A stretch of DNA of 64,000 nucleotides from Planctomycetota bacterium (GCA_031409275.1 JANNXA010000051.1:356809-420808), one strand, 5' to 3'. Positions 46,977 through 61,771 are shown, numbered from the stretch's first letter. The notes: generated by a model from the sequence alone, not told the origin. Program-made: numbers and translations.

Positions 46977-47378
46977 TCAGAACGGCAGCTCCTCGTCGGG
47001 ATCGAGCGGTGGCGACTCGCGACCGGCGGCAGAGTCGCCCGCGGCCGGCTCCTCCTTCTTGCGGCGTTTCCGTTTGCGCGGTGCGGCGTCTTCTCCCGCT
47101 TCGTCGGCGCCGCCTTCCGCCGCTTCGGCCGCGGCGTCATCGTCATCGAGGTCCTTCAGCACTTCGACGACGCGCGCCTCGGTCGCCTTCAATTTGGCGC
47201 GGCACACCTTGAGCAGCGCGACGGCCCGCTCCACTTTCAGGGCAAGCTCGTCGACGTCGACCTCGTCGCGATCGATCGAGGCGAGCAACTGCTCGATCTC
47301 CTCGACGGCCGCGGCGTAACGCACCGCATCGGGCTCGTCGCCCGCCGCATCCTTCGCATCGCGTCCCTGTCCCATCAC
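46977..47378 (-). CDS. xseB: Exodeoxyribonuclease VII small subunit
   Basis: YAAAVEEIEQLL..IDRDEVDVDELALKVERAVALLKVCRAKL. Overlaps the xseA stop. Confidence 0.88.
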   Translation of the reverse strand: MMGQGRDAKDAAGDEPDAVRYAAAVEEIEQLLASIDRDEVDVDELALKVERAVALLKVCRAKLKATEARVVEVLKDLDDDDAAAEAAEGGADEAGEDAAPRKRKRRKKEEPAAGDSAAGRESPPLDPDEELPF

Positions 47379-49150
47379 GATCGCTCCTCGCGGCGCGCAC
47401 CCGCGCCATCGGTCGTTTCGCCCGCCGTGCTCTTCACCACCGTCGCGGCCACCTGCCCACGCGCCAGCTGCGCGTGCAGCATCGCGCCGGGAGCGAGCTG
47501 CGCCGCCTCGCGAATCGTCTGCCCCAACGCATCGCGCACGATCGCAAAGCCGCGCCGCAAGGTGGCCTGCGGATGGAGCGACGCCGCGCGCAGCTCCAGA
47601 TCGGCAAGTCGAGCGGAGCGGCGCTGCAAGGTGGCGCGCAGCCGCGCCGGCTCGAAGCGCTCGATCAGCTTGGTCAACAGGGACGCCCGCAGCCGACCTT
47701 GAGCGCGCGTGAGCTCGCCCAGCCGGACGCGCGCATCGGCCAACGCGGTCCGCGCGCTGCGCACTCCCGACTGCAGCGCCGGCGCCAGCCGCGCACGCGC
47801 CGCGGCCAGCCGCTCGCGCGCACCACGACCGGCGGCATGCGCCCCGGCGGCGACGGCGGCGGCGACTCGGCGCAACCGCTCGCGCTCAGCGGGCAGCACA
47901 CGGCCGAGCGCCTCGCGCAACGCCGCGCCGCCTTGCGCCAGGAGCTGCTCGTAGGCGGCGACCCGCGCCACGATCGCGGCGGCGGCGGCGGTCGGCGTCT
48001 TCTCGCTGTGCGCGATCAGGTCGACCACCGAGACGTCGCGTTGATGGCCGATGCCGGAGATCACCTTGAGCGGCGACGTCGCCACGGCGAGCGCTACCTG
48101 CAAGGCATCGAACCCCATCAAGTCGGTCTTCGCGCCGCCGCCGCGGACGATCGCGACGACGTCGAACGCGTCGAGATGCGTGTCGAACCAGGCCAATGCC
48201 GCTGCCAGTCCGCGTTCCAGCCCGGCGCCCTGCACGCGCGTGTCGATGGCGGTGATGACGAAGGCGTAGCCGCTGCGCGAGAGTTCGTTGACGAAGTCGT
48301 TGTAGGCATCCGAGCCGGCGCTGGTGATCAGGCCGACGCGCAGCGGCACCAGCGGCCACGGCAGCGCACGATTGCGCTCGCGCAGGCCGCGGCGATCGAG
48401 CTCGGCCAGCACCTTGGCGCGATCCTGCGCCAGCTTCCCGAGCGTGTGGATCGGATCGACGTCCTCGACGACGAGCTGGTAGCTCCCCTTCGGGGCGTAG
48501 AGCTCGACGCGCACGGCGAGACGCACTTCGAGGCCATCCTTCAGCTCGAACGGTGCATCGGCGGCGGCCAGCTTCTTCTCGATCTCGCGGCGCGCGTTGG
48601 CGAAGAGGACGGCGGCGACGGTGGCACGCACCATGCCCCCTTCGCCATCCGTCGCTTTCTCGATCAGCTCGAACCAGACGTGCGGCCGGTGGCGGCTGCG
48701 CTCGAAGCCGGCGATCTCGCCGACCACCCACAGTCGCTGCGGGAACGCGGCGAGCAGCACCTGCTGCACGCGACTGTTGAGCGCGGAGACGGTCCACGAT
48801 TCGGGCGGCGCGATCGCGGCGGCGGCGGCCGCGGTCGCGGGTGGCGCGTCGGCGAAGAGCGCAGCCACCGCAGCGCGCGGCGCCGCCGGCGCCACGATCC
48901 CCTCGGCGAGCGTCTGCGTCCCGCCACGCGCCGCGTACGCCTCGCGCGCCGCCGCGGCCACTGCGAAGCCGTGCGGCACCAGCAGATCGACCACCTCGAC
49001 CACGCTCTCGACGGGCGCGCTCCAGCAGCGGTTCAGCTTGTCGAAGCTGCGGCGCGACAGCCCGCGCACCACATCGACGAGCGTCGGGTGGTACGGAAAG
49101 CGGATGACGACCTTCGCGTCACCTTCGAGCTCGATCGAACGTCCCGTCAC
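47375..49150 (-). CDS. xseA: Exodeoxyribonuclease VII large subunit with extra N-terminal (HARP-like) domain
   Basis: WTVSALN, WVVGEI, GLITSAGSDAYNDF, VQG, IVRGGG, SGIGH, KTPTAAA and LRRGFAIV. GTG 49150. Confidence 0.9.
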   Translation of the reverse strand: MTGRSIELEGDAKVVIRFPYHPTLVDVVRGLSRRSFDKLNRCWSAPVESVVEVVDLLVPHGFAVAAAAREAYAARGGTQTLAEGIVAPAAPRAAVAALFADAPPATAAAAAAIAPPESWTVSALNSRVQQVLLAAFPQRLWVVGEIAGFERSRHRPHVWFELIEKATDGEGGMVRATVAAVLFANARREIEKKLAAADAPFELKDGLEVRLAVRVELYAPKGSYQLVVEDVDPIHTLGKLAQDRAKVLAELDRRGLRERNRALPWPLVPLRVGLITSAGSDAYNDFVNELSRSGYAFVITAIDTRVQGAGLERGLAAALAWFDTHLDAFDVVAIVRGGGAKTDLMGFDALQVALAVATSPLKVISGIGHQRDVSVVDLIAHSEKTPTAAAAAIVARVAAYEQLLAQGGAALREALGRVLPAERERLRRVAAAVAAGAHAAGRGARERLAAARARLAPALQSGVRSARTALADARVRLGELTRAQGRLRASLLTKLIERFEPARLRATLQRRSARLADLELRAASLHPQATLRRGFAIVRDALGQTIREAAQLAPGAMLHAQLARGQVAATVVKSTAGETTDGAGARREERS

Positions 49151-49755
49151 TTCGGCTCCTCGCGTCTCGGCGCCGCGGGTGCGGCAGGCTTCGCAGGATA
49201 GAAGTCCTCTGGATCGGTCCCCAGCGCGTCGGCGACGCGATTGATGTAGTTGAAGTAGGCGATCACCTGCACCGCGTCGTGGATCGCGCGATCGGAGAGG
49301 CCCGCCGCCCGCAGCGCTTCGACGTCGTCGCGGCCGCACGCGGCCGGTTCGCGCGTGAGTTTCTCGGCGTACCCGCACAGCGCCTGATCGAGCGGCGCGA
49401 GGCCGGCCCCGCGCCAGTCGACCTTCGCCGCCGCCACCAGCGCGTCGGCCGCGGCTGCCCCCACCGTCTTCTCCGCCTCCGACCGGAGGTCGTGCGAGTG
49501 TGCCTCGGTTCAGTAGTGGCAGCCGTTCGTGCGCGACACGACCACGGCCAGCAGCTCGCGTTGCACGCGCGAGAGCGGCGAGGCGCCATGCATCGCGACG
49601 CCGTAGTGGCGCATCGAGGCATCGAGGAGCGGCGGATTGGGGCTCATCGTCTTGACGATGTTCCAGACGCGGCCGGCGCGGCCGATGGCGGCGTCGTACT
49701 GCGCCTTCAGCGACCCCGTCGCCTCATGCACTTCCACCAGGCGGATGTGGGCCAT
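49147..49755 (-). CDS. AhpD/carboxymuconolactone decarboxylase-family peroxidase-related selenoprotein (Sec at codon 82, TGA 49512-49510)
   Basis: MAHIRLV...RELLAVVVSRTNGCHY-TGA-TEAHSHDLR...YAEKLT..P...LRAAGLSDRAIHDAVQVIAYFNYINRVADALG is one continuous frame with a CxxU motif and a downstream hairpin. Confidence 0.88.
49476..49489 (-). promoter_or_regulatory. Putative bacterial SECIS hairpin
   Basis: Minus strand CCTCC-GGTC-GGAGG. The loop starts with G, about 25 nt after the TGA. Confidence 0.65.
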
Positions 49756-49797
49756 CGTTGCGCTCCCCTCTTCGCCGACCCCGCTACCATCGCGGCC

Positions 49798-51243
49798 ATG
49801 AACGAGCGGCGACGCTACTCGGTGATCCGGGACCCCGTCCACGGCGACCTCTACCTCACCGACGAGGAGATGGCGCTGCTCGACACCGCGGCGATGCAGC
49901 GGCTGCGCGGCGTGCGGCAGCTCGGCACCGCCTACCTCGTCTACCCCGGCGCGCAGCACACCCGTTTCGAGCACTCGCTCGGCACGCTCCACGTCGCCAG
50001 CCGGCTCATCGCCGCGATCAACCGCAACCGCGAGCTGCGGCCGGAGGGACTGCTCGGCATCGCGGCCGACGAGGAGCGCATCGTGCGCGCCGCCGCGCTG
50101 CTGCACGACGTCACCCACATCCCGTCCGGCCACAACATCGAGGACGTGCGCGGCATCCTCGATCGCCACGACTCGGCGCCGCGCTACCTCGCGCTCCTCG
50201 GCGAAGGGAGCGAGCTCGGGACGCTGCTGTCGCGCATGGGGATCCGGCGCGAGGTGCTGGCCGTGCTGCTGCCGGAAGGGACGCCCGGCTGGCCCGAAGT
50301 CCCGGCTTGCTGGCGTGAACTGCTCTCCGACACGATCTGCGCCGACCTGCTCGACTACCTGAAGCGCGACGCCTACTTCACCGGGCTCAACCTCGCCTAC
50401 GACGAGCGCGTGCTCTCCTACTTCATGGTCGATCGCGCCAGCGGCCATCTCTTCGTCGACGTCGAGAAGCGCGGCCTCTTGCGCGAGGACATCCTCTCGG
50501 AGCTGCTGCGCGTCCTCGAAGCGCGCTACTTCTTCAGCGAGCGCGTCTACTACCACCACGCGAAAGTCGCGGCCGGCGCCATGGTGGCGCAGGTGGTCGA
50601 GACCGCGCTGCTGCACGGCGGCCTGCAGAAAGAGCAGCTCTTCACGCTGACCGACGCCGAGCTCCTGCCGCTGCTCGAGCGCCATGTCGCCGCCCCGACG
50701 CCGACGGGCCGCTCGGAGAATTCCGGCGGCGAGCTCTTCGCCGCGGTGCGCAGCGACGTCGCCGACGAACTCGCGCGCGCACGCGAACTGGCGACGCGGC
50801 TGCGTTCGCGCCGCCTGCTGAAGCGCGCCTGCGTCTATCCGCTCTACGCCAACCGCGGCGTGCAGCAGGAGCTGCTCGATCGTTTCTTCGCGCCGGGCCG
50901 CCATGGCGAACGGCAATCCTTCGAGCGCGACGTGCGCGAGCAGCTTCGTCGCGCCGGCCACGAGCCGGTCTTGATCCAGCTCTATTGCCCGTCGCGCAAG
51001 ATGCAGCTGAAGGAAGCCGCGACCCACGTGCGCTACCCGGGCGCCGCCGCCATCGCGCCGCTGTCGACGTTCGCCGACAAGCTGCCGCGACTCGCCGACC
51101 TCGAACGCTCCTATCGCGACCTCTGGAAGCTCTACCTCTTCGCCGGCAGCGACGACCCGCGCGTCCTCGCCGAGATCGGCCGCATCGCCGCGCGCCTGCT
51201 GCCCGGCGCCGTCAACGTCTACCAGCCGACTGCGGAGCGCTGA
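49798..51243 (+). CDS. HD-domain phosphohydrolase, SAMHD1/dNTP triphosphohydrolase-like
   Basis: IRDPVHG, QRLRGVRQLG..YLVYPGAQHTRFEHSLG, LLHD, ADLLDYLKRD and ERVYYHH. Confidence 0.88.
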   Translation: MNERRRYSVIRDPVHGDLYLTDEEMALLDTAAMQRLRGVRQLGTAYLVYPGAQHTRFEHSLGTLHVASRLIAAINRNRELRPEGLLGIAADEERIVRAAALLHDVTHIPSGHNIEDVRGILDRHDSAPRYLALLGEGSELGTLLSRMGIRREVLAVLLPEGTPGWPEVPACWRELLSDTICADLLDYLKRDAYFTGLNLAYDERVLSYFMVDRASGHLFVDVEKRGLLREDILSELLRVLEARYFFSERVYYHHAKVAAGAMVAQVVETALLHGGLQKEQLFTLTDAELLPLLERHVAAPTPTGRSENSGGELFAAVRSDVADELARARELATRLRSRRLLKRACVYPLYANRGVQQELLDRFFAPGRHGERQSFERDVREQLRRAGHEPVLIQLYCPSRKMQLKEAATHVRYPGAAAIAPLSTFADKLPRLADLERSYRDLWKLYLFAGSDDPRVLAEIGRIAARLLPGAVNVYQPTAER

Positions 51244-59635: not shown

Positions 59636-59711
59636 AGGGGTGTAGCTCAATTGGCAGAGCGGATGATTCCAAATCATCAGGTTGCGGGTTCGATTCCTGC
59701 CGCCCCTGCCA
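59636..59711 (+). tRNA. tRNA-Trp (CCA)
   Basis: AGGGGTG/CGCCCCT acceptor stem, GCTC/GAGC D-stem, GATGA-TTCCAAA-TCATC anticodon arm, GGTTCGATTCC T-arm and encoded CCA; 76 nt. Confidence 0.96.
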
Positions 59712-59920: not shown

Positions 59921-61771
59921 CTACCGCAGCCCGGTCCCGTTGCACCAATGGCAGGTCTCGATGGTGCCCGAGCGATGGACGGTGCCCATGACCCAACCAC
60001 CGCGGCTGTCGCTGCCGCCGGTCGCGCTCCAGATCATCTCCTGCGACGCGCTGCCCGCGACGTAGAGCGAGCCGGTGCCGTCGCAGCGAAGACACCAGCC
60101 GTCGAACGCCGGGTAGTCGTCCGATGACTCGACTTCGACGGGCTCCGCGTCTGCCTCTCGCTGCCGCGCCTCGCTCGCGAGACGCTCTTCCTGGAACCGC
60201 CGCGCCGCCTCGGCGCGTTCGCTGTTCTGCGCGAGTCGCTCCAAGTCGGTCTTCGTCTTCAAGAGGCTCACGCGGTCGTACTCGACGGTGACGCCATTGC
60301 GACGGTCGAAGTACTCGATGCAATCGCCGGCTTCGCAACGGACCTCGCTGCGCTCGTTCGCGAAGGAACCGGTCGCGTCGAACGTCTCGACCCGCTCGCC
60401 CGCGGAGTAGACCTCGGTGTGGCCGTCGCTCGTCAGGTAGGCGCCCTCTTCGGGTCGGCCGCCAAGAAACTGCCCGACGAAGTAGCCGCGTTCGGGTCGG
60501 AACAGCAGTCCGTAGCCATGCGGGAGCAGGCGTTCACCATCGCGCACCGCGGTCCCGATGTAGGCGGAGCCGTCGACGTACTTCGCCGCCACCCGGACCT
60601 CGCCGTCGTCGAGTTGCGCGTGCACCGTCTCCTGAATGGTGACGGTCGCCCGCTCGAGCGGGATGCCGAAACGACAGGGGCCAACGGTCGCCGGGCGCTC
60701 CGCTGACAAGTAGAGCCCGCGGCCGACCAGCGAGTCGGCGCCGATGAAGAGATCGCCATTGGCGAAGAGCAGCGCGACGTCCGGCGCGATGGCGACGTCG
60801 TGCAGCACCATGCAGCGCCGCCACGGGTCGAACGTGGGTTCAGGGCGAGTCCCATCGACGCGAACGGTGACGGCAGCGCCGTCGGCGCAGCGAATCGTCG
60901 CCATGGCGCCGTCGCGCTCGATCGTCACGCCTTTCGCGCTCGCCAGGACGCCAGGGAATACGACGTCGGCCGGGAAGGTGAAGTCGCCGAGTTCCTTCGC
61001 CACGCGCGCGGCCCGATCGGCCGCGACCGCTTCCTTCGCGGCGGCGAGCTGCGCCTCGAATTCGAGCGCCAGCGGGACCGCGCGTCCCTCGATCTGCTGC
61101 AGCTTTCGCGCCACCACCTCGAAGTGTCCCGCCGCCAACAGCGCTCGTGCCTGGCGCAGCAGCCCGGAAGTCGCAACGGCGGGACGATCCCCGAGGAGCG
61201 CCTTCTCCGTCCCGAAGCGGTAGCACAACGCCGCCTGTTGGTGGCCTCCCTCCTCATTCCAGCGGTCGCCGAGGACGAGCCACGCTGACGCAAGAGCCGC
61301 CTCATTTCCGCTGTCCCCGAGCGCTAACACCTTTGCTTCGAGATCGGCCTTCGTCGGCGCTCCGTTCGTGAACCGGCCGTGCTCCGCCATCAGTCGCGTC
61401 CACGCCTGCTTCGCGTCGGGGTCGCTCGACTCGAACGACGCGTCGTTCCAGTAGTCGATCGCGCGATCGATCTTGCCGATCCGCTCGCAGGCGGTCGCAG
61501 CACGAACGTGAAACCATGCCCGCTCGGCATCGGTGCTGAAGGCGCAGTCGACCTGGTCCGCGAGGTCAGCGACTCTGGCGAAGTTCTGCTCACTCCAGGC
61601 GAGCCTGAAATCAGGAAGCAGCTTCGAGGCCGCGTCACGCCTGGCCGCCTTCCCGGCCTCGTACTCGGCCATCTCAGCGTCGCGGGCGAACGCCCCGAAG
61701 ATCTCACCGGTTCCGCTGCAGCAGCCGCAGCCAGCAAGGAACAGCGACGCGAGCAAGCTCAGGAAGCGCAT
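59921..61771 (-). CDS. Hypothetical lipoprotein: TPR-like + MORN-like + coiled coil + DnaJ-type Zn finger
   Basis: FLAGC lipobox, helical repeats, YIG...PHGYG...YFVGQF, and CLRCDGTG plus CHWCNGTG. Confidence 0.7.
   Translation of the reverse strand: MRFLSLLASLFLAGCGCCSGTGEIFGAFARDAEMAEYEAGKAARRDAASKLLPDFRLAWSEQNFARVADLADQVDCAFSTDAERAWFHVRAATACERIGKIDRAIDYWNDASFESSDPDAKQAWTRLMAEHGRFTNGAPTKADLEAKVLALGDSGNEAALASAWLVLGDRWNEEGGHQQAALCYRFGTEKALLGDRPAVATSGLLRQARALLAAGHFEVVARKLQQIEGRAVPLALEFEAQLAAAKEAVAADRAARVAKELGDFTFPADVVFPGVLASAKGVTIERDGAMATIRCADGAAVTVRVDGTRPEPTFDPWRRCMVLHDVAIAPDVALLFANGDLFIGADSLVGRGLYLSAERPATVGPCRFGIPLERATVTIQETVHAQLDDGEVRVAAKYVDGSAYIGTAVRDGERLLPHGYGLLFRPERGYFVGQFLGGRPEEGAYLTSDGHTEVYSAGERVETFDATGSFANERSEVRCEAGDCIEYFDRRNGVTVEYDRVSLLKTKTDLERLAQNSERAEAARRFQEERLASEARQREADAEPVEVESSDDYPAFDGWCLRCDGTGSLYVAGSASQEMIWSATGGSDSRGGWVMGTVHRSGTIETCHWCNGTGLR

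Follow-up and report, generated by a model that had tools for sequence, protein, structure and literature searches.

Four neighbouring genes at positions 46977..51243 of a 64,000-nucleotide (nt) stretch of Planctomycetota bacterium DNA (GCA_031409275.1 JANNXA010000051.1:356809-420808; hereafter the window) encode an AhpD-like selenoprotein (ahpD), the two subunits of exonuclease VII (ExoVII; xseA and xseB) and, divergently, an HD-domain phosphohydrolase. Taken individually these are ordinary-to-variant genes, and they are direct neighbours in one Planctomycetota family only. We consider it probable that the arrangement is inherited gene order, with xseA likely insulated from decoding of the selenocysteine (Sec) codon in ahpD, and that a selenium-controlled unit is unlikely. 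The part of the locus that is apparently undescribed is the fusion of a HARP-like domain to XseA, which apparently makes this enzyme an ExoVII variant.

The source genome is 5.59 Mb, 69% GC and 93% complete, and the named relatives are Planctomycetota. A preliminary description of the locus had called the four genes as a Sec-containing AhpD-like protein, HARP-XseA, XseB and a SAMHD1/EF1143-like HD protein; profile and structure-database matches bear these calls out, and the coordinates, gene overlaps and 42-bp gap that it gave are present in the sequence. The features discussed below are:

49147..49755, minus strand: ahpD, AhpD-like/peroxidase-related CxxU selenoprotein gene, 202 codons with Sec at codon 82; TIGR01926
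49510..49512, minus strand: in-frame TGA read as Sec (C-H-Y-U), from sequence and orthologues
49476..49489, minus strand: hairpin resembling a bacterial selenocysteine insertion sequence (bSECIS), 5-bp stem and 4-nt loop starting with G, the loop 25 nt after the UGA
49195..49200, minus strand: putative −10 hexamer TATCCT of a likely internal promoter for xseA and xseB, located 44 nt ahead of the GTG of xseA
49156..49161, minus strand: Shine-Dalgarno (SD) motif of xseA, GAGGAG, 5 nt before the GTG, pairing with the 3' end of this genome's 16S rRNA at −7.9 kcal/mol
47375..49150, minus strand: xseA, ExoVII large subunit, 591 amino acids (aa); TIGR00237, Pfam and catalytic residues
48914..49150, minus strand: N-terminal HARP-like domain of XseA, about 79 aa; profile match to SMARCAL1 HARP (4O66) and predicted fold
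46977..47378, minus strand: xseB, ExoVII small subunit, with its own SD and a charged C-terminal tail; TIGR01280, PF02609
49798..51243, plus strand: HD-domain phosphohydrolase gene, EF1143/SAMHD1 type, 481 aa, likely a deoxynucleoside triphosphatase (dNTPase) and likely leaderless; 2O6I and SAMHD1 matches
49785..49790, plus strand: putative −10 hexamer TACCAT of a likely leaderless HD promoter, 7 nt before the HD ATG; score 12.8
49812..49817, minus strand: putative −10 hexamer TAGCGT for ahpD, within the first codons of the HD gene; context score 5.9 (low)

The final TGA of ahpD overlaps the GTG of xseA by 4 nt (GTGA, 49150-49147), xseA and xseB overlap at GTGATG (47378-47373, the xseB start being either GTG 47378 or ATG 47375), and 42 bp (49756-49797) lie between the ahpD ATG and the divergent HD gene.

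Expression signals of xseA

The preliminary description had proposed that selenium gates xseA, with ribosomes reaching its start only by decoding the ahpD UGA as Sec. The computational evidence speaks otherwise: xseA carries a strong SD of its own together with a likely internal promoter past the UGA, and its overlap with ahpD is of a common kind and is not conserved. The SD is stronger than those of three quarters of 300 sampled genes from the same genome (quartile −6.6 kcal/mol, median −4.3 kcal/mol), and the xseA start region is fairly open, with an unfolding cost of 10.6 kcal/mol against a genome median of 13.9 kcal/mol.

The case for an internal promoter comes from the −10 consensus TANNNT, which peaks 6-11 nt before ATG starts genome-wide and is rare inside genes (0.17 per kb). 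TATCCT (49200-49195) is the sole TANNNT inside ahpD and lies downstream of the Sec codon, where it encodes Tyr186-Pro187 by two rare codons; among 1166 Tyr-Pro pairs counted in gene interiors, a single one is spelled TAT-CCT. All four relatives, from two genera, that retain the Tyr-Pro also keep this spelling, although 26-32% of the codons for conserved residues are changed in these same comparisons, each of which keeps just 1-2 of the other 11-14 A/T-ending codons. In G007, the family genome in which xseA is separated from ahpD, the hexamer is lost from ahpD and a TATCGT stands 50 nt before xseA. We regard TATCCT as a likely internal promoter of xseA. Among 23 other HARP-xseA loci, just eight have a TANNNT in the 70 nt preceding xseA, a figure not counted here as support. 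The hexamer assigned to ahpD itself, TAGCGT, is present in seven of the eight family members, and the eighth has another TANNNT at a similar distance.

Gene order among relatives

Gene order was compared in the eight genomes of the source genome's own family and in 34 other genomes of the order, many of these assemblies being fragmented. Within the family ahpD directly precedes xseA in seven of eight genomes; in the eighth, G007, an opposite-strand AbiEi/AbiEii pair (a type IV toxin-antitoxin; L027:1676-3291) fills the 1.8 kb between them. The ahpD-xseA junction measures −4 (window), 0, +15, +5, +5, −1 and +10 nt, the starts in the relatives being inferred, and the 4-nt overlap is found in one of the eight members. 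Rieske and arginase genes adjoin xseB in all six relatives with contigs long enough and, since these unrelated neighbours are equally syntenic, the ahpD-xseA block is no more conserved than they are.

The preliminary description had looked to conserved synteny as the check on its proposal, and gene order is not conserved outside this one family; this, like the SD and likely promoter of xseA described above, is an outcome that the description itself had named as refuting it. Adjacency of ahpD and xseA occurs in none of the 26 order genomes outside the family with matches to both genes, and the sequence flanking the 22 best ahpD loci outside the family shows no xseA. In the sister-family genome G041 the two genes are 5.9 kb apart with several genes between them, including an opposite-strand acyltransferase gene and an Mrp/NUBPL ATPase gene, and a sigma-factor gene lies between ahpD and the HD gene. 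We also examined 22 further HARP-xseA genomes, of which 21 have selA and 21 a TGA-containing AhpD relative (some distant, perhaps paralogues). Adjacency was found in 0 of 21 of these; the distance between the genes is about 56 kb in five and 2.9 Mb in single-contig G192, and in the rest they are on separate contigs. Twenty fetched xseA neighbourhoods of HARP-xseA genomes hold neither ahpD nor the HD gene. The HD gene was found in 21 of the 42 order genomes, and in the 12 genomes of family f4 it is on contigs other than those of ahpD and xseA. In family f27 (L152, L154) a ClpB-like gene lies between xseA and xseB, which are about 3 kb apart.

Genome-wide counts, which rest on a crude, custom gene finder, put the overlap in context: a 4-nt RTGA overlap is on offer in 728 of 2769 same-strand adjacent pairs (26%), and in 33% of the 2191 pairs within 150 bp. 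The overlaps are thus no more than chance, unlike the selenoprotein and the HARP-like domain. These comparative data illustrate how a common 4-nt overlap together with family-level synteny can mimic a regulon.

An exonuclease VII with a HARP-like domain

The subunits themselves are readily recognised, XseA scoring 286.9 bits against TIGR00237 (cut-off 180) and XseB 42.1 against TIGR01280 (cut-off 35), with a PF02609 match as well. Residues D285, R336, H369 and D372 of XseA align to D155, R205, H238 and D241 of the Escherichia coli protein, the catalytic residues identified in PMC3439923 (here and below, papers given by PMC number are cited for the accessible parts of their text). The locus enzyme shares with E. 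coli ExoVII (XseA4-XseB24, PDB 8TXR; PMC10835039, PMC3439923) the OB fold, catalytic residues, coiled coil, C-terminal segment and xseB partner. In the E. coli protein, however, the OB fold comes first, whereas the locus XseA adds an N-terminal HARP-like domain and a variable linker, so that its layout runs HARP-like domain, Ala/Pro-rich linker, OB fold, catalytic domain and coiled coil. It is because about 115 extra residues, including a folded domain, precede the OB fold, in departure from the four-part architecture that starts with that fold, that we class this XseA as an ExoVII variant.

By profile, and less clearly by predicted fold, the N-terminal domain appears to be HARP-like. The approximately 79 N-terminal residues have a confident predicted fold (predicted local distance difference test, pLDDT, 89.6), and a 12-row profile of the domain has the SMARCAL1 HARP structure 4O66 as its top PDB match (E 5e-4); PF07443 was matched weakly by 10 of the 12 aligned members, with a best E of 0.0015. 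When the profile was searched against 1.84 billion representative proteins, the best 150 matches, classed partly by motif, comprised 63 that look SNF2-like by motif, 35 XseA, 31 short proteins and 21 others, and of ten non-XseA matches picked for Pfam analysis nine were SNF2 proteins and eight carried PF07443 at E<=1e-4. Of the solved structures, N-terminal domains of XPB and UvsW come closest in fold and fill the top four rows (Z 6.0-6.4, root-mean-square deviation 2.2-2.5, 55-65 aligned residues), at scores that are middling and closely followed by those of unrelated folds. The structure paper on HARP reportedly likened it to XPB and MutS domains. Residues F18, R34, W43 and F62 are invariant in 25 fusions at 34-55% identity, rows that were chosen by the HARP profile. 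The stretch between the HARP-like domain and the OB fold ranges from 18 to 118 residues in 25 aligned fusions, and this wide variation in length is consistent with a flexible tether. Compared with the SMARCAL1 HARP (PF07443, 4O66) and the N-terminal domains of T4 UvsW and archaeal XPB, the domain in XseA is present in single copy and is fused to a nuclease without an ATPase motor. Library matches P0126-P0271 include numerous SNF2 proteins in which the HARP repeat is present two or three times, a SMARCAL1-like architecture, and some of them contain inteins.

Spread of the fusion

At least eight families of Planctomycetota have the HARP-XseA fusion. The domain was found in at least 26 of 401 sampled genomes of the phylum, an undercount since the scan scored 14 candidates per genome, and all 22 cases outside the source genome's own family are in frame with XseA. 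Where counted, its presence on XseA is all-or-none, being 8/8 in f1, 5/5 in f47 and 2/2 in f106, and it was not found on XseA in f2 (0/16), f3 (0/5), f4 (0/12), f9 (0/34) or f78 (0/16). XseA accounts for 115 of the best 120 longer proteins carrying the domain; a precomputed PF07443 match is present in 23 of 120 listed relatives (counted by eye), and the architecture is visible in Pfam tables. Among narrower searches, a single-protein scan of genome contigs returned nine loci, all in Planctomycetota, a single-sequence protein search returned three close XseA only, and of 20 divergent HARP proteins looked up two clusters were named, both from Planctomycetota. A tree was built from 54 XseA cores, only some of the loci being used and partial and near-duplicate ones set aside; its 36 HARP-bearing and 18 HARP-less rows split at 100/100. 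Because this tree was built without an outgroup and all its HARP-less rows come from one order, gain, loss or transfer of the domain cannot be ordered. Literature searches, with most subscription journals outside their coverage, turned up no paper on an exonuclease VII with a HARP domain and no description of a selenoprotein-exonuclease VII operon; one returned two papers, both on eukaryotes.

Small stand-alone copies of the HARP-like domain (open reading frames of about 85-130 aa, 40-66% identical to the domain in XseA) are encoded away from xseA in three of five genus members, at G000:C12:49192-49464 (L034 5130-5525, minus strand), G005:C20 (L033) and G007:C572 (L031), and several short proteins like these are among the library matches.

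Weighing the explanations

In the arrangement we favour, a promoter overlapping the start of the HD gene would transcribe ahpD, and SelB would read the UGA as Sec by means of the hairpin to give a CxxU thiol/selenol redox protein. Ribosomes would not have to cross the Sec codon for xseA-xseB to be made, given an internal promoter towards the 3' end of ahpD and the strong, fairly open SD, and XseA and XseB would assemble as normal ExoVII. The HD enzyme would act as a dNTP-pool hydrolase made from its own, probably leaderless, transcript. Several observations weigh against insulation. The start regions of the relatives' xseA genes are more structured (14-19 kcal/mol), which would suit coupling, and the presence of an SD is compatible with translational coupling. 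Promoters at the locus were assigned from hexamers only; the context score of the internal TATCCT (7.2) is about the median for TANNNT sites inside genes (7.3), and a simple sigma-70 scan of the region, which needs both hexamers and is poorly suited to a 69% GC genome, returned no promoter-like sites. Moreover, the family genomes and relatives compared are kin and not independent, and fragmented assemblies are common among them. One rival reading is a passive selenium dependence, in which ahpD, xseA and xseB are made mainly as one transcript and an undecoded UGA leaves about 360 nt untranslated; when selenium runs short, ExoVII would then fall through polarity or the loss of re-initiation, a side effect that was not selected for. 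The genes are on the same strand with no terminator-like site between them, ahpD and xseA lie within 15 nt of each other in seven of eight family genomes, the genome encodes a probable Rho (E 1.6e-145; 485.6 bits, just under the cut-off of 509), and the internal hexamer is missing from G003 and G006. There is also a precedent in Treponema primitia, in which transcription past the Sec codon of fdhF(Sec) is truncated in a selenium-dependent manner (PMC3892789); the general mechanism invoked in the preliminary description, that Sec decoding controls what lies downstream, thus has a parallel, but the effect there was measured within the selenoprotein gene itself, and at our locus any such effect would likely be bypassed by an internal promoter. 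We consider such passive dependence, perhaps a partial one, unlikely, given the strong SD and the −10-like hexamer conserved past the UGA in the window and four relatives, the full separation of ahpD and xseA tolerated in G007 and, more weakly, a GTG or ATG 16 codons past the UGA in four of five genus members that could permit restart. Very improbable, in our view, is a selected module in which Sec decoding gates ExoVII and, with the dNTPase, serves as an oxidative-damage or anti-phage unit, as the preliminary description had suggested. All four genes do lie within 11 kb in G041 as well, only 24 of 599 divergent pairs genome-wide are no more than 42 bp apart, and among the 17 Sec candidates ahpD alone overlaps the gene that follows it by 4 nt. 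On the other side stand the lack of adjacency in 26 + 21 other genomes holding both genes, the failure to find the HD gene in 21 of the 42 order genomes and its place on other contigs in the 12 of f4, the non-conserved overlap, and the single-copy, housekeeping context of xseA and xseB; PADLOC gave no match for AhpD, XseA or XseB and only a partial dGTPase match for the HD protein (E 1.4e-5). The gene set is not conserved as a unit across unrelated genomes and has no defence-family match above cut-off, and the module appears largely refuted by synteny. Selenium gating would have been the more striking finding than HARP-XseA; the comparative data suggest that genes following a selenoprotein gene may have promoters of their own that insulate them.

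For the HARP-like domain, we predict binding to DNA junctions and, thereby, a tethering of ExoVII to single/double-strand DNA junctions: held on a flexible and very variable linker, it would add affinity for forks, gaps and overhangs to that of the OB fold. We put at about even the chances of the fuller proposal, that a Planctomycetota ExoVII clade acquired the junction-recognition domain of fork-remodelling motors (SMARCAL1, UvsW, XPB) and became a structure-selective ExoVII without an ATPase, aimed at forks, gaps or protein-blocked overhangs. Weighing against it, DNA binding by the domain is itself a prediction; the window's domain scores 15.6 bits, below the Pfam PF07443 cut-off of 25; the best Z of 6.4 is middling, with 4O66 at Z 4.2 and unrelated folds at up to 5.7; and no Foldseek match to the domain model reached E<=0.001. 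Searching the PDB with the N-terminal domain as a single sequence found nothing meaningful, and all matches in the ESM Atlas stayed below 0.9 (the best at 0.86, with a HARP cluster at 0.77) and serve as no more than a lead. The domain could instead be a relic of the HARP fold, or a module for protein interaction, that leaves the choice of DNA substrate unaffected, a reading that the sub-threshold score and middling Z favour, as do the nearly equal scores of eIF2D/eIF1-like folds, the XseA without the domain in most related families and the existence of stand-alone copies. We find this the less probable course: the domain is fixed in each family counted, its four invariant residues persist across the 25 profile-picked fusions, and its nearest relatives are the HARP repeats of SNF2 motors. 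If it is true that HARP redirects ExoVII, the clade offers a natural experiment on substrate choice and on HARP away from its motor; how ExoVII chooses its substrates is named as not understood in PMC10835039.

The AhpD-like selenoprotein

Read with U as C, the ahpD product scores 129.7 bits against TIGR01926 (cut-off 81.8) over residues 4-184. All four Sec genes, selA, selB, the tRNA-Sec gene (selC) and selD, are over their cut-offs in the genome, and selD itself contains a TGA. The UGA sits at the second Cys of a CxxC motif and is TGA in 27 of 27 aligned orthologue rows, which are best hits from the order and related as kin; relative G005 has a Cys-form homologue (CGYC). With its 5-bp stem, GGUC loop and 25-nt distance from the UGA, the hairpin falls within the bSECIS model of a 4-16 bp stem and a 3-9 nt loop, with G first or second, 16-37 nt from the UGA (PMC13188914). 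Across the 27 orthologues 96% of cells in a 6-pair stem are paired, versus 27-56% in slid controls, and one pair is changed on both sides in three rows; overall folding energy and z-score are no better than those of shuffled sequences. That ahpD is a broken gene was ruled out, as the TGA, frame and hairpin are conserved across the phylum. The first gene fits a known AhpD-like CxxU selenoprotein. It shares the CxxU motif, coding-region bSECIS and above-cut-off score with AhpD-like 1 selenoproteins (COG2128, CxxU; TIGR01926) and is itself no different from them, the sole difference being its xseA neighbour in one family. AhpD-like CxxU proteins are among the common selenoprotein families (PMC2398784), and BSepDB (PMC13326102) has a family entry for them.

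A blind genome scan for TGA, redox motif and hairpin, incomplete in that it missed selD, returned the 17 Sec candidates mentioned above, with the locus ahpD among them. Most are thioredoxin-, peroxiredoxin- or glutaredoxin-like (UxxC, TxxU, CxxU), pointing to a putatively selenoprotein-rich genome, and four are long paralogues with a C-terminal W-U-G-P-C thioredoxin-like domain and one common hairpin. The in-frame start codon 16 codons past the ahpD UGA (window 49462-49464, minus strand) lies 11 nt behind the GGAGG arm of the SECIS; such start codons possibly allow a restart of the C-terminal half, or merely reflect structure and ancestry. The codon that follows the TGA is GTG in 21 of 54 motif rows (one row spurious) and GTC in two, which equally fits pairing with a downstream CAC or shared ancestry.

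The HD phosphohydrolase

The HD protein has 2O6I as its best PDB match (E 1.6e-25), with SAMHD1 at E ~5e-17. Aligned to both, it has an intact H-HD-D metal motif and His210 equivalent (residue list from PMC7045340), features shared with EF1143/SAMHD1-type dNTP triphosphohydrolases (2O6I), but the similarity is limited to about the first 260 of its 481 residues. It falls far below the cut-offs of anti-phage dGTPase families (NF041026, 15.4 versus 400 bits). We regard it as likely an ordinary enzyme of the EF1143/SAMHD1 type, with dNTPase activity presumed from this similarity. The gene has no SD, and TAC[C/G]AT stands 7 nt before its ATG in seven of eight family members, so that a separate, leaderless transcript is likely. 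Genome-wide, 165 of 2625 ATG genes fall in the TANNNT peak 6-11 nt upstream, which suggests a sizeable class of leaderless mRNAs.

Other features of the window

An Rfam scan of the window gave a single match, a tRNA-Trp at 59636-59711 that ARAGORN also calls. ARAGORN alone calls a 99-nt tRNA-Gly at 60812-60910 (minus strand), probably spurious. Between 51679 and 59552 lie genes for an FG-GAP repeat protein (905 aa) and two tandem FG-GAP/ASPIC-UnbV proteins, and the synteny of the ASPIC genes is kept in several relatives.

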